This document shows, one piece after another, positions 1,069-9,056 of a DNA stretch of 10,882 nt (within the stretch, counting starts at the first letter, position 1; each line of letters opens with the position of its first letter). A model generated the notes under the pieces. It was not told the origin of the DNA, searched no databases, and saw nothing but the letters and a program-made list of their open reading frames with translations. This DNA comes from a virus: the UHGV virus genome UHGV-1704817. One strand, given 5' to 3'. A program made the translations under genes and the position numbers.

Positions 1069-2387
1069 TGGCGACATGGCAACTTGGCGGGCTGCCTAGC
1101 ATGGCACCGCAAAATGATAATGCTCCTCGTTCTTCCGTTCCTCAGCCTGTGCAGTATCAGCAGCAGCCAAACGTAGGTTTAATGGCGCTACAGGGGCTAA
1201 GAGGCGTTGCTGAGATTAATCAGCAGGCGCAAATTTCCCAGCAGTTAAAAGAATATCAGGCACGGTTGGGTAGTGCGGTAGCTAATAATGATCGTGTTGG
1301 CGTGCAGAAGTTAATGGCCCAGTATCCCCAGTTTATGGCTGATTCTCAAAAACAGATGGGATTCATTGATGCTGAGCAAAATCGACAGACCGCTGACGCT
1401 GCCATGAATCTGCGTCTTGCGTCACAAACTGGAGATCCACTGACCATGCAGAAGGCCATTCAGCAGGCAAATCCAGTATTACAGCGATTTGGTCTTCCTG
1501 CTGAAGAGGTTTATCAGTCTTGGCAGAATGACCCACAGGAATTCAACAGAATCACTGACCTCATCCACCTCCATGCTGATCCAAATAGTTACTTTAGTGT
1601 TCAAGAGAAGCAGCAAGGGCAGAGCATTGCACAGCAGAACGCAGATACATCCGCATATAATGCTCAGGTTAATGCGGAACAGGGTAATCGACGTCTCGAT
1701 ATGGAGCAGTTCAAAGTCCTATCCGATAACCAACTACGCACGAGAGAAATGGTTCTGAAAGCACGACTTGGACGTGCTCAAAATGACATCGAGAGAGACA
1801 AGCTCAATGCTGAACTGAGCAAGGTACAGCAGGCGAAAGTGGAGAAGATGAACGATAAAATTAATACTGTTGTAGGTAACATCGACTCCTTGAACTCTGC
1901 GCTTGAAGTGGGTCATGAACTGGCGGGAATTGTAGGGAAACATCCTTCGGCCGTTACCCGCTCGCAGAACTATAACCCCCTGACGCTGGGGTTTGGATTC
2001 CTTCCTGATGTAGCAGAAGACACACGAAGCCTACGCGCCAAAGCTGATGAATACAACCTAAAGGTTATTCTGCCTAGCCTCAAAGGGACTTTTGGCTCTA
2101 ACCCAACCGAAGGGGAAAGGGCTGCCCTTATGCAATCTCAAAATGGCATTAAGTCAGCAACCAGCAATGAGGCATTTTTGCGAGAGTTGAATAAAGCGCA
2201 GGACGTAATTATTCGAATGCAGAAACGACAGATTGCCGGGCTCGGTATTCCTGTAACCAAATCTAAGGACGAAGAAACTGATACCAAAATGCTGTTGCAG
2301 GATCCTTCACTGGTTAAGGATTATGTGACCGCACATGGCTATCTGCCGGAAAGTTACTATCAGGCAAAACTTAAGGGATGGCAATGA
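1068..2387 (+). CDS. Phage DNA-ejection (internal virion) protein, gp20-like by position and size
   Basis: 439-aa ORF, Gln-rich and predicted helical, coupled to both neighbours (TAATG upstream, ATGA overlap downstream). Second gene of a three-gene block matching the gp7/gp20/gp16 order of P22-like podoviruses. Assignment is by synteny and size, not alignment. Confidence 0.75.
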   Translation: MATWQLGGLPSMAPQNDNAPRSSVPQPVQYQQQPNVGLMALQGLRGVAEINQQAQISQQLKEYQARLGSAVANNDRVGVQKLMAQYPQFMADSQKQMGFIDAEQNRQTADAAMNLRLASQTGDPLTMQKAIQQANPVLQRFGLPAEEVYQSWQNDPQEFNRITDLIHLHADPNSYFSVQEKQQGQSIAQQNADTSAYNAQVNAEQGNRRLDMEQFKVLSDNQLRTREMVLKARLGRAQNDIERDKLNAELSKVQQAKVEKMNDKINTVVGNIDSLNSALEVGHELAGIVGKHPSAVTRSQNYNPLTLGFGFLPDVAEDTRSLRAKADEYNLKVILPSLKGTFGSNPTEGERAALMQSQNGIKSATSNEAFLRELNKAQDVIIRMQKRQIAGLGIPVTKSKDEETDTKMLLQDPSLVKDYVTAHGYLPESYYQAKLKGWQ

Positions 2388-5104
2388 TGGCACAACTGAC
2401 AGAAAAACAGAAAGCCTATTCCCGTCATCTCGATGAAAAATATGGTTTCCCATCAGGGACGATGGAAACATTAGTTGGCAATGAATCTAGTGGTAACGGA
2501 AGTGCCGAGTCACCGAAAGGAGCTAGAGGATTTGCTCAACTGATGCCCTCAGTAATGAGTGATGCTGGTTATCGTGGAACAGATCCGCGCTCACTGCCAT
2601 TTGAAAAGCAAATGGATATCGCAGCAAACCATCTCAATAAAGGAATGAAGCGATTTGGTGATATAGGTATGGCATTGGCTGGGTATAATTCTGGCTATGC
2701 TCGTATTAATGCCGTCAGAAACGGTAAATCTACACTGCCAGATGAAACGGCTAATTACGTAAGTAAATTTGCAGATGCCGGAATAATCCCTGATGACAGT
2801 GAAATCTTGCAGTTTGCACAAACCAGTCAACATCGCAATCTTCAGCAGCCTGACTACTCAGAGCTTGATAAAGAAATCTCTCAGGTGGGAGATATTTCTG
2901 CATGGGAAGCAAAACGTCAGCAATTTAAGAACATAGAAGCAGGACTACCAACAGCCAGTTCATGGGAGCAGAAAAGAGCTCAGTTTCTCGCCGATGAAAA
3001 TGCCGGGGAACCGCAGCAGCAAGTAGCCAAGTCTAACCTTAATCCTGAGATGGAATATCTTTCGCCAGGACTGAAAGCTGCGCCAGAGCAGATGGCCAGA
3101 GGGATTGCTAATATACCGTTTGATGTAATGGACGCAGGCGTGGGGGTAGTCAATGCGGCGCAATCAGCCGGAGCATGGGCAGCTCAGAAGCTTGGTGTGG
3201 GTGATGGCACATACACGCCCATATCACCTGTCTTTCGCCCAGTAGACCAACCTACAGATCCATACGCGCAGGCTGGTGAGCAGCTAGCACCTTACCTTAT
3301 TACAGGATTAGGTGCAGGAAAGGCAGCTACCGCAGCTTCTTCAGTTGCCAACGCTCCACGTGCTGAACGTGCGGCCACAAAGGTGGCTAGTATGTTGGCA
3401 GAAAACCTGCCAGGTACATTGGTGAACGCCCAAAAGAACGGGCAGATCAGCCCAGAAGACCTAGCAAAAGAGACAGGTATTGGCCTAGCAGGATCGCTAG
3501 GAGCACGCGCTTTAATAAAGAGCGGACAGACAGCCAGTGACGTAATGCGAGATGTATTGCGGAGTAATACAAATCAATCAGGCCATGTGTTAGGGGCAGC
3601 AAATACTCTGGAAACCGCCAATGATGTATCGAAAGCAGCGCGTTCTGCCGTAGGCCGAGAGCATATCGCATCGCAGGCATCAAACGTCAGAGATGATGTC
3701 GCTAAGGCGGCGAAAATCACTGGTATTAATATCAACACCCTGACGCCTGGAATGCGCTCAGGTAGTCGTGGAATTGCCCAAGCAGAAGGTGTTCTGGCAT
3801 CAACTCCTGGGAATGTTCAGGATGCTCACCTTACGGCCTTCAATGAAATATCCTCAAAGTTGAATAAGCAGTTGTCTGATTTCGGTGCTGAGTCTGGAAG
3901 CGCATCAGAAAAAAGCGCAGCAATTAAAGAGCGCATCATCGCGAGCCTCAGTGATATGAAAACAGCAGAGAATATGGCATGGGCAGAACTGCGAAGCACG
4001 ATGCCACGCGAAAGGATGAAAATGAGTAATGGGATGGCTGTCGTCCAAGCAGAAAAAGCAGCCAATGTTCCACTCAGCCCGGAGATGAAACAGTTTCAGG
4101 CTGCCAACAACCAAGGTGGCGGCATAACCTTCGACGGGATGAAGGCATGGCGTGCTAAGTTTGCTGATGCTGAACAAGCAAACACCCGGGCAGGTAAGGC
4201 CAATGCCGCCCGGATTGCCGGAGAAATGCGCAGAGCTATCACTGATGACATGCGCATCATGGCTGAAAAAGGAAACTTCCTCACAGAATGGCAGAAAGCT
4301 AACGATCTCTCTAAAAGTTACATTATCGCCAAACAAAATGCCGAATCTGTTTTTGGTCGAGATCTCGCATCAGACGCTATGGTAAGAAAAGGTGCCGATA
4401 CGCTTAAGGCATCCGCAAACACTGGAACGGGAGCTTTTCACCGTCTTATCTCCGCGCTGCCGGAAGCAGAACGCCAACCTGCAATAGCATCTATTCTTCA
4501 GCATGCTGTGGCGCAGGGAGAGAAGGGAGGAATCGGTGAAGAGTCAGGTATCCAGTATTTTGCCAAGCTCATGACCCAGCAGAATGTAAACGCCATCAGT
4601 CGTCATGCGCCAGATCTCGGTAGAATGATGAAAGAGTTCGGTGTACTCGCTAAAGCCAGTACCAGACCGCAGCGATACGTAGAGCGCACGGGAAGAACAA
4701 CTGAGGCTCTCAAAACGCTCGATTCAGGCCTTCCAAAGATCGTCGGCGTGATTATGAACGGAGTTCAACAGTCAGGTGCGATCGCTGGAGGCTTTGGCGG
4801 TGGTGTAATTGGTTCGATTAGTGGTTTGGTTGCTGGTGGCGCGCTAAGAAATGCTGTGGCTAAGATTGGGGCGACAAGAAGTGGTCGATATGCGATAGAG
4901 AAAGCCGTTCAGGAAGCTACAAAAGCAGTGCGCGCAGGGGCATCACCAGCAGCGATCGCCGCAGCAGAGAAACGATTTTCGGCCAATAAAATTGCCATGA
5001 AAGCAATTCGTGATGCCGTTGGGGCTGAAGAATTCGTGAAACTGACAAGGGCCGGGATTGTAGCTACCCTCAGTGGCATGAAAGATGTTAGCGAATGGGA
5101 ATAG
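2384..5104 (+). CDS. Phage DNA-ejection / internal virion protein with N-terminal lytic transglycosylase (SLT) domain
   Basis: Long ORF ending at TAG 5102-5104. The SLT motif set is visible in the first ~120 residues: ES catalytic motif (LVGNESSGNG), GFAQLMP (GLMQ-like) and AGYNSGYARI (AYNxG-like). A glycine-zipper hydrophobic segment lies near the C-terminus (GAIAGGFGGGVIGSISGLVAGGAL). Start chosen at ATG 2384 because AAGGGA (2373-2378) sits 5 nt upstream; the six-frame track starts at 2378, which overlaps that SD; ATG 2387 is also possible. Confidence 0.85.
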   Translation: MMAQLTEKQKAYSRHLDEKYGFPSGTMETLVGNESSGNGSAESPKGARGFAQLMPSVMSDAGYRGTDPRSLPFEKQMDIAANHLNKGMKRFGDIGMALAGYNSGYARINAVRNGKSTLPDETANYVSKFADAGIIPDDSEILQFAQTSQHRNLQQPDYSELDKEISQVGDISAWEAKRQQFKNIEAGLPTASSWEQKRAQFLADENAGEPQQQVAKSNLNPEMEYLSPGLKAAPEQMARGIANIPFDVMDAGVGVVNAAQSAGAWAAQKLGVGDGTYTPISPVFRPVDQPTDPYAQAGEQLAPYLITGLGAGKAATAASSVANAPRAERAATKVASMLAENLPGTLVNAQKNGQISPEDLAKETGIGLAGSLGARALIKSGQTASDVMRDVLRSNTNQSGHVLGAANTLETANDVSKAARSAVGREHIASQASNVRDDVAKAAKITGININTLTPGMRSGSRGIAQAEGVLASTPGNVQDAHLTAFNEISSKLNKQLSDFGAESGSASEKSAAIKERIIASLSDMKTAENMAWAELRSTMPRERMKMSNGMAVVQAEKAANVPLSPEMKQFQAANNQGGGITFDGMKAWRAKFADAEQANTRAGKANAARIAGEMRRAITDDMRIMAEKGNFLTEWQKANDLSKSYIIAKQNAESVFGRDLASDAMVRKGADTLKASANTGTGAFHRLISALPEAERQPAIASILQHAVAQGEKGGIGEESGIQYFAKLMTQQNVNAISRHAPDLGRMMKEFGVLAKASTRPQRYVERTGRTTEALKTLDSGLPKIVGVIMNGVQQSGAIAGGFGGGVIGSISGLVAGGALRNAVAKIGATRSGRYAIEKAVQEATKAVRAGASPAAIAAAEKRFSANKIAMKAIRDAVGAEEFVKLTRAGIVATLSGMKDVSEWE

Positions 5105-5254: not shown

Positions 5255-5953
5255 ATGATTAAAAATCTTCTTTTAATATTATCCCTGTCATTATTGGCTG
5301 GATGCGTACAAAAACCGTTAGTAACGGTCAATGCTTTATCTTCCGGGCAATCTGTCGGTAAGAAGTTCTTGATCATCCCCGCAAGCCAAGAACTTTGGAA
5401 CACCAAACAGATTGAATACACTCAAATAGCTACGGTAGTAGCCGCCAGTTTATCAAGCCAAGGATATACACAAGTTAAAGATGAAAAATTGGCTGACCAG
5501 GTAATTCTCTTGAACTTTTTGAGAAGCGGGGCCATTTCAAATACTCGTAATGTAACCATCCCAATATACGGGCAAACTGGTGTGAGCTCAGCAACAACGT
5601 ACGGAAACTCGAACACCCCGTTCAATAGTTATGGTGGTGGCTACGGTACAGCTAATACCACTGGAACGGCAACAACAGTTTATACGCCTACTTATGGAAT
5701 TACTGGCGCGTATAACACAACTGTGACGGACACGTTCTACGGCGCAGGGGTGATACTCCAGTCGTTTGATGCCAAGGCTTATCTCAATAATCGGCAGATT
5801 AATATGTTATGGAAAGTTGGTAGCTCAGTCGTCTCGCAACAGTCTGATGGAATTGCTGATTACAAAGGGTTGGCGAGAATAGCCGCTAGCTATGCCGGGA
5901 AAAATACAGAAGGTGATATAACTTTTAATGTTGACCCTAAAGCACCAAATTAA
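5255..5953 (+). CDS. Putative lipoprotein (prophage cargo / moron), possible surface or superinfection-exclusion factor
   Basis: 232-aa ORF with SD AGGTGAG (5243-5249). N-terminus MIKNLLLILSLSLLAGC is a signal peptide with a lipobox (LLAG-C, Cys17). Central T/G/Y/N-rich low-complexity stretch (SATTYGNSNTPFNSYGGGYGTANTTGTATTVYTPTYGITGAYNTT). Gene is AT-rich relative to the upstream ejection genes and preceded by a 150-bp AT-rich intergenic region. Confidence 0.75.
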   Translation: MIKNLLLILSLSLLAGCVQKPLVTVNALSSGQSVGKKFLIIPASQELWNTKQIEYTQIATVVAASLSSQGYTQVKDEKLADQVILLNFLRSGAISNTRNVTIPIYGQTGVSSATTYGNSNTPFNSYGGGYGTANTTGTATTVYTPTYGITGAYNTTVTDTFYGAGVILQSFDAKAYLNNRQINMLWKVGSSVVSQQSDGIADYKGLARIAASYAGKNTEGDITFNVDPKAPN

Positions 5954-5960
5954 CTAATAA

Positions 5961-5986
5961 GCCCGGTACGCCGGGCATTCATGCCC
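5961..5986 (+). terminator. Putative intrinsic terminator hairpins downstream of the lipoprotein gene
   Basis: GCCCGG-tacg-CCGGGC (5961-5976) overlapping GGGCAT-tc-ATGCCC (5973-5986), 8 nt after the lipoprotein stop. The following U-tract is weak (ATTCAT..TTATTC), so the call is tentative. Confidence 0.35.
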
Positions 5987-6034
5987 CTATTATTCATGAA
6001 TCGCTTTTTCTGGAAGGTATGCGACAAACGTTAA

Positions 6035-6319
6035 GTGACATTGCCTACACATTCGGGCTCAAATCCGCTCCCAGTTGATGGGGCCGTTACAGTACGCGCA
6101 TATCCGCTTTATGTGAAACAGGAAGATTTTTCTGATATCACAGCCACAGCAAAACACCAATTTCGAGACAAGTACGCACACAATGGAGGGGAGTACCATG
6201 AAACTGTTCTCTACACGAGACAGAGTGGTGGTGATGTGTTGATTATCGGCGTATATGCGCACAGGACGCGCTATGACAATGTTTTATGCGGGTACACCAA
6301 TCACATGTATCTGGTGTGA
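6035..6319 (+). CDS. Questionable ORF (94 codons, GTG start only, no SD); overlaps repeat copy 1; probably a gene relic or non-coding
   Basis: No in-frame ATG start; the track's first codon is GTG at 6035 with no upstream Shine-Dalgarno. Contains the conserved GACAAGTACGC element at 6167-6177. Confidence 0.15.
   Translation: MTLPTHSGSNPLPVDGAVTVRAYPLYVKQEDFSDITATAKHQFRDKYAHNGGEYHETVLYTRQSGGDVLIIGVYAHRTRYDNVLCGYTNHMYLV
6159..6181 (+). repeat. Copy 1 of a diverged direct repeat with perfectly conserved 11-mer GACAAGTACGC
   Basis: AATTTCGA-GACAAGTACGC-ACAC, with the 11-mer at 6167-6177. Same orientation as copies at 6400-6410 and 9105-9115. All three share ATTT(C/T)G(N)GACAAGTACGC(R)C(R)C. Confidence 0.7.
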
Positions 6320-6342
6320 TAAATCGCGTTACATGACCTCTC

Positions 6343-6540
6343 ATGTTGTGCTGGTGGTTATCACGACGTTCTGAATCTGGCTTTTGTCTGATATTTTGCG
6401 ACAAGTACGCGCGCGTAACATCGAAATTATCGGATGGCGTATGTTGCTGGCAAGATAAAGCCGGCGTAATACAAAGGCGTTACTTGATAGCAGCAAGATT
6501 ACAACAATGGTTGTTGAATTTGAGCGATGTAAGGAATTGA
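6343..6540 (+). CDS. Questionable ORF (65 codons); overlaps repeat copy 2; probably non-coding
   Basis: No convincing SD, and the ORF is Cys/Trp-rich in an unusual way. Contains GACAAGTACGC at 6400-6410. Confidence 0.12.
   Translation: MLCWWLSRRSESGFCLIFCDKYARVTSKLSDGVCCWQDKAGVIQRRYLIAARLQQWLLNLSDVRN
6391..6419 (+). repeat. Copy 2 of the GACAAGTACGC repeat family
   Basis: ATATTTTGC-GACAAGTACGC-GCGCGTAAC, with the 11-mer at 6400-6410. About 45 bp around the core aligns with copy 3 at roughly 75% identity with one indel (ctggcttttgtctgatattttgc vs ctggcggtttctggtatttcgg upstream of the core). Confidence 0.7.
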
Positions 6541-6751
6541 TTTAGGGAGGCGCTGATGGCTAAAAAGTTCCACTACCAGCGGATGAATGCGCCAGCGATG
6601 GCCGTTTGGTAGTAAAAGAGGAGCCATTCCTCAATCAGTTGAATACATTATGCCAACTAAATGGGTGGGGCACTGTGTGGGTATTCAGCGGTGACGGTAT
6701 TTTTTAAGCCAAGGACTATCCGTAGCAGGGGGACTCATTTTGAAATATTTA

Positions 6752-7189
6752 TCATATGTAACTTATTATTTTAGATAAAGATTTCCAGTTAAAGAAAAAA
6801 GTTATCATTGATATAATCAAATATGCCCCTGCGAGTAGCAGGGCATAATAATCCAGAGGCAGATTGCTGACAACAGGGGCAAACATCGAGATCATTGCTA
6901 ATAGGCAGGCTGTGATCAGCGTAGTTCCTGTATCAAAAAGCCCCTCAATAATGCCTTTTAGTACTCCGTTACTTTTTAGAGCGCCTACAATTCCCTTTGA
7001 ACTATCAAAGCTACTTAGCATGGTGACTGATGCCAAAACAAAACCAAAGAGAACTCCAGAAATAGTTGAAAGAGCACCAGCAGCCGAAATGACAGCATTG
7101 TGATCTAGGTCGTGTAAAAAATGGGCACCAGCAATAGCCATAGCTAGAGCAAACAATGACTTGGCAGCAAACAATTTCCGAGAACTCAT
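6752..7189 (-). CDS. Small multi-pass inner-membrane protein (145 aa, about four TM helices); second gene of a two-gene operon; candidate membrane effector
   Basis: Minus-strand ORF with AGGA 7 nt upstream of its ATG. It starts 12 bp after the TAA stop of the 361-aa gene. Four long hydrophobic segments (about residues 9-24, 32-60, 85-110, 113-135) and an HDLDH motif in the first loop. AT-rich. Confidence 0.75.
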   Translation of the reverse strand: MSSRKLFAAKSLFALAMAIAGAHFLHDLDHNAVISAAGALSTISGVLFGFVLASVTMLSSFDSSKGIVGALKSNGVLKGIIEGLFDTGTTLITACLLAMISMFAPVVSNLPLDYYALLLAGAYLIISMITFFFNWKSLSKIISYI

Positions 7190-7201
7190 AATGTATTCCT
7201 G

Positions 7202-8287
7202 TTACGTTTGACTAACCAAATAGTACTGGGTTAGATACCTAAGGTTGTCATTCTTTGCTTGTAGCATAGCATTTTTAACGTCAGTATCGGTCGGATACCC
7301 ATCTGCTTGGATAGGCACCATCTTCTTTACCGTAAGAACTTCGTCTACAAGACTTTTCTTCTTTTTATCGCCCTGAGCAACAACATTTGCTTTCTCAAAA
7401 GTTAAACGACCATCACCACCAGGGAACTTTTCTAGCATCTCCTTAAGGCTTTTTTTAACGTCATCCTCAAGCCATCCCTTTGCTTTTCTTTTTAATGGAG
7501 AATGTCCGCGTAACGAAATAGTCAGGTGGCTTGAACTGGTGCCTCTGATCATCTCAATCATCTGATTCGCGAACATTCCATCGAGTTGATACTGTGCGGC
7601 ATTGAAGTTTCTTGGGATGGCCACAGAAATCTCGCAGCTTCTTAGATTGGATCCAGTTTCGAGTAGTTCTTTGATGCTTTCTTCTTTCCAAATGGCTTCA
7701 AAAGAAACAGGGACTCCGCGATCACTGGAGTTGAAAAGAAGGAAGGCTAAGTCACTATGGCGTGGACCTAAATGATTTAAAGACAATACTAGAATGTCTG
7801 TCTGAGGATAATAAATAAAGTATGTACGTTCTGAAAGAGTCTTTGCCCCGGCTAGAGGGATTTTCTCTTCCACCCACTCTTTATCTGTAATATATGCCAG
7901 TGTTGCGCTTTTTCTTCTTCGAGACATGAATCCGAAGTAGGAGCCATCCTCGGGTGAGATGTCTAGAAAATGAATTTTAAGTTCTCTTTCACCAAAGTCT
8001 GCATAGTGGGTCATCTTGAAGTCTTTAGAACACCGATCATACAGATTTTTAAAGGCCTCTGCGGTTAACCCCTTGTTACTAGTGCGAATATTCTCAGAGC
8101 TTGTGTAAAAGCCCACCCTTACAGATTTCAAACTTTGATCTTTTGGTGCCACAGTCATTTGAGCTCCATTGTACTCTGCGATAGTTTTTGCACACCTTGA
8201 AATCAAAATCTCCATGTCAGTCACGAGAAAATAACTATGGATGAAACCCATCAAAGGCATTGAATACAGGTGGCTTTTGAGAATCAT
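7202..8287 (-). CDS. Hypothetical soluble protein (361 aa), first gene of a two-gene operon with the downstream membrane protein; candidate sensor/enzymatic component of a defence or abortive-infection module
   Basis: Long minus-strand ORF with AGG(T) about 5 nt upstream of ATG 8287. A sampled 60-bp stretch (7441-7500) is 38% GC, against roughly 50% by eye for the phage late genes. No Walker A or other catalytic motif recognised by eye. Preceded by a 487-bp AT-rich divergent control region. Confidence 0.8.
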   Translation of the reverse strand: MILKSHLYSMPLMGFIHSYFLVTDMEILISRCAKTIAEYNGAQMTVAPKDQSLKSVRVGFYTSSENIRTSNKGLTAEAFKNLYDRCSKDFKMTHYADFGERELKIHFLDISPEDGSYFGFMSRRRKSATLAYITDKEWVEEKIPLAGAKTLSERTYFIYYPQTDILVLSLNHLGPRHSDLAFLLFNSSDRGVPVSFEAIWKEESIKELLETGSNLRSCEISVAIPRNFNAAQYQLDGMFANQMIEMIRGTSSSHLTISLRGHSPLKRKAKGWLEDDVKKSLKEMLEKFPGGDGRLTFEKANVVAQGDKKKKSLVDEVLTVKKMVPIQADGYPTDTDVKNAMLQAKNDNLRYLTQYYLVSQT

Positions 8288-8637
8288 CCTAACCTGGTGA
8301 CGGTGGTTCGCATATCCTGATGGATGATCAGTGATTAATCAATGCGCCAAGCAGATGTGTCTATGTGTTTGTTAATCATTGCATGACAGTAGATCGACAT
8401 GGGAGATCACGTTATATAGTTGAATTGTTAGGATATCCATGCACCGATCAACTGACTAGGCTGATGTGCTTTTTAGCAGGTGCCATATAGTAGTTAGGCG
8501 GTTCTGTGAAATGATTACTGTTCCAGCATAACTGCGGCATAAAGCGGTGCTATATAAGCTATTTGCTGGCGGATTTAGTCTTCACCGTTAATATATGTAG
8601 TGACTATTTGACAGAGTGTTAGTTCACGGACACTTTT

Positions 8638-8670
8638 TGTTGGTTCAAAATGAGTTGATGTTGGTTCAAT
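8638..8670. repeat. Two copies of TGTTGGTTCAA (reverse complement of TTGAACCAACA) spaced 21 bp apart; putative regulator-binding sites
   Basis: TGTTGGTTCAA at 8638-8648 and 8659-8669, start-to-start spacing 21 bp (two helical turns). Inverted relative to the tandem array at 8712-8738. Confidence 0.65.
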
Positions 8671-8711
8671 ATTTTAGAAAAAACACAATAAAAACAACGC
8701 TCTTTACAAAT

Positions 8712-8738
8712 TGAACCAACTGAACCAACTGAACCAAC
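8712..8738. repeat. Three perfect tandem copies of TGAACCAAC (iteron/operator-like) immediately upstream of the PerC-like gene promoter region
   Basis: TGAACCAAC at 8712-8720, 8721-8729 and 8730-8738 with no spacer, ending 17 bp before TATAAT (8756-8761). Confidence 0.7.
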
Positions 8739-8774
8739 ACCTTTTTGCTTATCTATATAATCTGAGAGGCAGAA

Positions 8775-9056
8775 ATGATAAGGGACAGGAAAGCTGAAGA
8801 GCTGGAGTCAAAAGGGCTATACCGGAGAGCTGCCGCACGATGGATGGAAGTCATGCTGTTATGCACCGAGGACGATGATCGGGAATGGATAAAGCGCCGC
8901 CGTGAAACGTGTCTGGAGAACGTGAAGCGCCCGCCCGTGAAGGTTGAGGAATTTGGCGACCTGCATAAAGCTGTTACCGAAACGCAACACCGCATGGGGA
9001 TAGCGCAACCGAACGGTAACGCCTTCCGGTTAAATGGCGGCAAGAGGCAAAGGTAG
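8775..9056 (+). CDS. PerC-family-like small transcriptional regulator (prophage-encoded, Pch/PerC-type)
   Basis: 93-aa ORF with SD GAGAGG 5 nt upstream. The N-terminal motif AEELESKGLYRRAAARWMEVMLL matches the LE..G(L/W).RRAA.RW signature I recall for PerC/Pch proteins; this is from memory, not alignment. Basic C-terminus. GC is higher than in the flanking cargo. Confidence 0.6.
   Translation: MIRDRKAEELESKGLYRRAAARWMEVMLLCTEDDDREWIKRRRETCLENVKRPPVKVEEFGDLHKAVTETQHRMGIAQPNGNAFRLNGGKRQR

Follow-up and report, generated by a model that had tools for sequence, protein, structure and literature searches.

The two SD-like motifs and the short open reading frame found at 6543-6623 of UHGV virus genome UHGV-1704817 (10,882 nucleotides, one strand, called the window here) are probably chance products of drift, located beside the left junction of a cargo slot in DNA that is decaying and presumably without function. 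The original prediction, which took these elements for relics of a deleted gene or conceivably for a leader-peptide element, gave the coordinates of both motifs, the ATG, the 18 codons and the stops, and all of these are exact on direct reading and translation:

6543-6550, plus strand: first SD-like motif (SD1), TAGGGAGG, with the GGAGG core at 6546-6550, from direct reading
6556-6615, plus strand: mini-ORF MAKKFHYQRMNAPAMAVW, 18 codons followed by TAG TAA, from direct reading and translation
6616-6623, plus strand: second SD-like motif (SD2), AAGAGGAG, which overlaps the left arm of a hairpin at 6618-6632

The ATG at 6556-6558 is placed 5 nt past the GGAGG core of SD1, and the tandem stops of the mini-ORF are TAG at 6610-6612 and TAA at 6613-6615. 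The starts nearest to SD2 are TTG at 6639, which is 15 nt off, and ATG at 6650, which is 26 nt off, so SD2 is without a usable start codon, as had been proposed. Both motifs and the mini-ORF are contained in an unannotated gap of about 800 bp (5954-6751), for which no RefSeq annotation is present in any sister genome inspected. Another orphan SD with an ATG is found in the same gap at 6185-6242 (GGAGG at 6185-6189, ATG at 6198, 14 codons), and this ATG 6198 is ATA in several sister loci.

The SD-like motifs and the SD plus ATG pairs occur at or below chance frequency. GGAGG is found 8 times in the window against 15.3 +/- 4.0 expected from dinucleotide shuffles, and AGGAG 9 times against 16.8 +/- 4.1 expected from the same type of shuffles. 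GGAGG or AGGAG followed after 4-9 nt by ATG occurs twice, against 3.8 +/- 2.2 in mononucleotide shuffles. These two pairs, with ATG 6198 and ATG 6556, are both inside the unannotated interval and neither of them precedes an annotated gene. An 18-codon ORF with two adjacent stops is without statistical weight.

The window matches E. coli chromosomes and has no match in a phage collection of 50,697 records. Judged from the annotation of sister genomes only, it is a chromosomal island of E. coli similar to a Gram-negative PICI. RefSeq annotation of near-identical sister loci gives tRNA-Thr, an integrase, an HTH regulator and a TOPRIM/DUF927 primase on the upstream side, with a PerC-family regulator and a pRiA4b-ORF3 protein on the downstream side. 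Several sister genomes have the primase as a pseudogene, and in sister locus L001 DUF927 is intact together with TOPRIM. The late zone contains a contiguous P22-like DUF2824(gp14)-gp7-gp20-gp16 ejection-protein module, and no other virion genes are seen in the window. The genes and anchors around the motifs are:

391-1068: P22 gp7 (Pfam)
1068-2387: gp20-type injectosome protein (Pfam)
2378-5104: SLT-domain gp16-like protein (Pfam)
6059-6424: conserved block without annotation (about 365 bp), serving as left anchor of the slot, outside the motif interval
6752-7189, minus strand: 145-aa cargo gene WP_000098670.1, matching phrog_8552 at 3.6e-54, a function-unassigned PHROG
7202-8287, minus strand: 361-aa cargo ORF (318 aa, 7202-8158, in RefSeq), matching phrog_7651 at 3.6e-139, a function-unassigned PHROG
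8616-8858: right anchor of the slot, upstream of PerC, with homology restored from 8616, 8638 or 8757
8775-9056, plus strand: PerC-family gene, annotated in sister loci

The gp16-like gene is followed by a gene for a 232-aa protein (5255-5953), which has a lipoprotein-type N-terminus, MIKNLLLILSLSLLAGC, and matches the profiles of DUF4136, TraT and spanin only weakly. The other island lineage has a gene for a convergent 141-aa membrane protein in its place.

The slot between the two anchors is variable. A comparison with nine complete-genome loci and twelve IMG/VR loci puts the left edge of the slot at 6424, 6460 or 6594 and the right edge at about 8616-8757. Homology with sister islands ends at 6424, 6460/6463 or 6594, and past each of these breaks there is different cargo, which bears out the proposal that the interval is a recombination scar zone. 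One further island type breaks at about 6474 in the alignment, and in some lineages the part derived from a small terminase gene (terS), which is described below, is wholly gone beyond 6424. The cargo of the various islands includes an Abi protein, ImmA/IrrE with a small protein, HTH regulators, small hypothetical proteins, and the pair of 145 and 361 aa found in the window. This pair has no PADLOC, Pfam or NCBIfam match, and its 145-aa member is apparently a hydrophobic, membrane-type protein, as judged by eye from its sequence. Since the pair fills a slot that elsewhere holds Abi, ImmA/IrrE and HTH genes, it may have an uncharacterised role in defence or exclusion. A 501-nt probe covering 6300-6800 matches 537 E. 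coli chromosome records, with full cover in only 41. Along the left side of the slot, identity to the PA45B island type is distributed as follows:

6059-6424: 97%
6425-6463: 87%
6464-6542: 71%
6543-6594: 81%
beyond 6594: random

The PA45B type, in which homology ends at 6594, is present in 68 of 5426 complete E. coli genomes and the window type in 41 of them. The segment that matters for the mini-ORF is:

6526-6594: stretch common only to PA45B-type islands, which holds SD1 and codons 1-13 of the mini-ORF

In this comparison 42 of the 52 positions of 6543-6594 are identical, and past 6594 the similarity is random. Islands of the PA45B/G749 type have GCG where the window has ATG 6556, and a weaker SD, CAGAGAGG, where the window has TAGGGAGG. 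Codons 14-18 and the stops are beyond 6594, in cassette-specific DNA, and since the mini-ORF crosses the 6594/6595 junction it is a lineage-specific chimera. It is identical in four sister loci (L001, L003, L023 and L024), and an 801-nt query that includes it (6500-7300) is found at 99.6-99.9% identity in 41 of the 5426 complete E. coli genomes. These 41 genomes are essentially identical, so that selection is not measurable within that group.

Upstream of the motifs there is a decayed fragment of a phage packaging gene, found in these pieces:

about 6396-6525, plus strand: frameshifted 5' relic of a Terminase_2-type terS, from tblastn, PHROGs and HMM
6396-6419, plus strand: relic piece FCDKYARV
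6425-6466, plus strand: relic piece NYRMAYVAGKIKPA
6465-6518, plus strand: relic piece RNTKALLDSSKITTMVVE

The relic in the window has an 11-nt deletion after 6463, further frameshifts, stops and many substitutions. The PA45B/G749 type keeps a 36-aa ORF, MAYAAGNMKTDSINRKAKELLDNGKIAARVAEFEQM, at the equivalent of window 6434-6540 (L004 6135-6245), which is named phage terminase small subunit by JGI and whose sole PHROG match is phrog_51 terS (E=0.022). By tblastn against phages this ORF retrieves 100 records; among the 25 listed, 21 bear a terS annotation and four are hypothetical or without annotation. Its best match has 67.6% identity over 37 aa (E=5e-9) and covers residues 31-67 of a 148-aa TerS. 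An HMM built from 120 PF03592 homologues, with a profile length of 140, gives the sister copy in L004 a score of 45-52 bits (profile positions 10/22-60), and scores the frameshift-corrected relic of the window at 16.5-17.9 bits. The identity as terS comes solely from PHROGs, tblastn and this custom HMM, and Pfam and NCBIfam give zero matches for the conceptual relic peptides, which are short fragments. The relic corresponds to the N-terminal helix-turn-helix (DNA-binding) region of Terminase_2, with profile positions 10/23-60 of 140 aligned and nothing recognisable past about position 60. An intact terS is absent from all 20 related loci, and no large terminase gene (terL) is found next to the relic, which is adjoined by the convergent cargo genes instead. 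Being fragmentary, frameshifted and without an intact copy, it is a pseudogene fragment and not a member gene of Terminase_2. The lineages retain terS fragments of differing length, which we read, from the sequence comparison, as the probable result of repeated truncation from the cargo side. A second terS N-terminus, considered at 6127-6177 (direct repeats D1/D2), scores 2.2 bits with the HMM, which is not significant.

The gene relic that had been proposed is present as this decayed 5' fragment of terS at about 6396-6525, but neither SD-like motif is left over from the 5' end of a gene. SD1 is not the start of the former gene: the relic's own 5' end is about 130-160 nt upstream of it, and the mini-ORF starts about 30 nt past the last detectable terS residue and in another frame. 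The mini-ORF frame (REALMAKKFHYQRMNAPA; REALAAKKRHYQRINVPI in the sister type) was also considered as a continuation of terS via a KRH motif, and was rejected as unsupported, since it gives no gain in HMM score. SD2 fares no better as a former gene start, being part of a hairpin arm that flanks a convergent gene on its 3' side, within cassette-specific DNA. A search for an intact ancestral gene, in which a six-frame pseudo-protein of 6520-6765 was compared with 5.8 billion proteins, gives zero matches at E<=10 in any frame.

The phage TerS closest to the relic is found in records labelled as cyanobacterial phages, represented by L012 (PP438408.1, 'Leptolyngbya phage Lbo-JY16') at 208-1463. Those records carry a tRNA Ile-Thr-Gly trio, which is also found in the E. 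coli 510016 prophage region beside the island (L001 12164-12473), and close homologues of this TerS protein occur in Citrobacter, Klebsiella, Enterobacter and Raoultella. It may be worth verifying the hosts given for these phage records.

The block at 6059-6424 is placed directly 5' of the terS relic and is far better conserved than the coding sequence beside it: island lineages share it at 97% identity even where blastn fails to align their neighbouring ejection-protein genes. About 545 of the 5426 complete E. coli genomes (about 10%) carry the block. It contains a pair of 18-24-nt direct repeats. No conserved ORF is found in it, and the ORFs across the block are lineage-specific chimeras. 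No lambda-type cosN is found in the block, searches of the DNA of 5900-7300 and 5950-6760 against the 50,697 phage records give zero matches, and the block is not similar to the proteins that three phages encode upstream of their terS. A 22-mer from the block is absent from a collection of species-representative genomes, and in IMG/VR it retrieves only junction types already seen.

An ORF of 94 aa at 6035-6319 was rejected as a real gene, since the common undeleted form of the locus splits it into ORFs of 52 and 34 aa. A HMMER search with this ORF against 1.84 billion representatives retrieves 16 proteins, nearly all of them short ORFs with high identity, and the five taken for inspection run through different frames of the same locus. 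The window and L011 are without a segment of about 53 nt (deletion point about 6171-6177) that is found in most sister loci (L003 9177-9230). This segment contains a perfect palindrome, GTTGCAAAA-AA-TTTTGCAAC, and has AGTACGC repeats at its flanks. Its deletion fuses two frames into ORFs of 94 aa in the window and 143 aa in W284, the latter annotated by PGAP, and both therefore look spurious. The right part of the block, from 6307/6308, is fused in two genomes (L005 4001-4154, L006 4001-4117) directly to lambdoid prophage genes, which encode an HTH protein and a truncated RusA. These fusions indicate deletions that join a prophage to the island tail.

On the other side of the 6594/6595 junction, the cassette DNA contains or adjoins these features:

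6595-6751: cassette-specific 3' flank of the convergent 145-aa gene, present only in the 41 cassette-bearing genomes
6618-6632, minus strand: hairpin GAGGA-gccat-TCCTC with a 5-bp stem, -7.4 kcal/mol, z = -2.1
6561-6600, minus strand: second, weak terminator-like hairpin, -10.3 kcal/mol, z = -1.3 (not significant), followed by UUUUU

Neither E. coli genomes nor phages have the 6595-6751 segment in any other context, and its six-frame protein search is empty. Past the hairpin at 6618-6632 the minus strand reads UUUUACUACC (UUUU), while the U-run of the hairpin at 6561-6600 is the complement of AAAAAG in the mini-ORF. Both hairpins are 3' of the convergent cargo operon and may be weak terminators, a reading that is only suggestive.

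SD2, and possibly the A-run of the mini-ORF, could be the plus-strand image of intrinsic terminators that end the convergent 361/145-aa operon. This is unlikely, and it is compatible with a chance origin of the mini-ORF. A consensus scan of the minus strand gives two terminator-like sites, 6632..6618 and 6583..6569, both downstream of the 145-aa stop at 6752, and the first of them is the hairpin with z = -2.1 that is followed by UUUU. The sites are, however, separated from the stop codon by 120-170 nt, with short stems of 5-7 bp that contain few G-C pairs, and each U-tract is short or broken up. Shuffled sequences fold as well as 6520-6760 does on either strand (z = -0.7 and -0.1), the hairpin at 6618-6632 is lost in the minimum-energy fold of 241 nt, the second hairpin does not reach significance, and there is no sequence variation with which hairpin conservation could be assessed. 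It is very improbable that the mini-ORF is a true coding element, translated as a micro-protein or as a leader peptide with a regulatory effect on an adjacent gene. The near-consensus SD, the 5-nt spacing to the ATG and the tandem stops speak for it; a core and spacing so near the optimum mean that any plus-strand transcript would probably be translated to some extent. This near-optimal spacing, together with the 81% conservation of 6526-6594 between two island types, counts against the chance reading. Translation as a function is opposed by the start codon and the SD, which are not conserved in the only diverged homologous sequence, and by the ORF itself, which spans a recombination junction, has zero homologues in protein databases and encodes a peptide that is not hydrophobic, unlike type I toxins. 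The plus-strand consensus scan gives no promoter-like site upstream of the mini-ORF and a terminator-like hairpin at about 5961-5986, 3' of the preceding 232-aa gene. The next plus-strand gene past the mini-ORF is PerC at 8775, 2.1 kb on and beyond two convergent genes, and Rfam gives zero matches over the whole window up to E=1. A leader peptide had been offered as the other possible origin of the motifs, and it is not supported: neither a conserved start and SD, nor a co-oriented downstream gene before PerC, nor significant or alternative RNA structures are found. The bolder reading, in which the 18-aa peptide is a lineage-specific micro-protein, has no support.

A third explanation is concerned with the DNA upstream, and states that the terS fragment and the block at 6059-6424 are kept in cis, as a packaging signal of the pac/cos type for a helper terminase or as a homology arm for cassette exchange. 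The pac and cos sites usually lie directly before the start of terS, and this is the place that the block occupies. The 97% identity between lineages with unalignable flanks, the presence in about 10% of E. coli genomes without a conserved ORF and the pair of 18-24-nt direct repeats agree with such a function. Nevertheless it is quite unlikely: the block has neither DNA similarity to the 50,697 phage records nor a lambda-like cosN, the terS part is eroding and is wholly removed beyond 6424 in some lineages, and the high identity could reflect recent recombination. It also gives no function to 6544-6623, and if it were true the SD-like motifs would be incidental sequence at an unconstrained, decaying edge.

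The origin of the motifs and the mini-ORF by drift, which is the preferred reading, can be described as a putative series of events. An ancestor of the island would have taken up a piece of phage late-gene DNA, and with it the 5' part of a Terminase_2 terS. Repeated replacement or deletion from the cargo side would then have truncated terS at 6424, about 6474, 6460 or 6594, depending on the lineage, and left a remainder that is now frameshifted and diverging. In the lineage of the window, point changes in the purine-rich stretch 3' of the relic would have given GGAGG and an ATG 5 nt on, where the sister type reads AGAGAGG and GCG, in a comparison that is without an outgroup and unpolarised. 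The new reading frame would run over the 6594 junction into cassette DNA up to the first stops, as an 18-codon chimera presumably not maintained by selection. SD2 would belong to the cassette's own 3' flank and would at most help to terminate the convergent 361/145-aa operon. The coordinates, the terS homology, the nested breakpoints, the unconserved ATG and SD and the lack of a protein homologue are observed, whereas we infer the succession of these events and the absence of translation from the motifs.

Gene decay beside an accessory-gene hotspot in the late zone of a satellite is already known and is ordinary. The lesson for annotation is that decaying DNA yields near-perfect SD and ATG pairs by chance, and that such pairs should be annotated only with evidence of conservation. 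The comparison places the cargo-slot junction within about 170 nt (6424-6594) in a widespread family of PICI-like islands of E. coli. It also adds a previously unannotated terS pseudogene fragment, which is a record of captured phage packaging DNA, and flags the conserved non-coding block at 6059-6424 as a possible packaging or recombination element.

Compared with Terminase_2 (PF03592) genes, which encode about 130-200 aa, the relic keeps about 40-50 codons and is without the C-terminal oligomerisation part. The mini-ORF is similar to leader-peptide attenuators and upstream small ORFs in that it is short, has a strong SD and is located between genes, but a downstream co-oriented gene, a conserved peptide and alternative hairpins are all missing. 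Gram-negative PICIs have a layout of Integration, Replication and Late zones, and their dynamic late zone captures late-gene clusters of helper prophages (Tommasini, Mageeney & Williams 2023, PMC10111431). E. coli PICIs that encode PerC have been described (Fillol-Salom et al. 2018, PMC6092414), as have the cos sites of PICIs (PMC6092414, PMC6739421). The island shares with these elements the gene order, which runs from the integrase, an HTH/AlpA-type regulator and the DUF927 primase to captured late genes and on to accessory genes including PerC. It differs from the published PICIs in its captured module, which consists of ejection proteins, and in carrying in the window a relic of terS and not a working terS or Rpp gene. 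Rousset and colleagues are said to have described, in 2022, hotspots of accessory and defence genes with conserved anchors in P2 and P4. The cargo of the window differs from that of such hotspots in having no known defence match, and its left anchor is non-coding or pseudogenic and not a core gene, while the arrangement itself is like theirs, with conserved flanks at 6059-6424 and about 8616-8858 around differing cargo.
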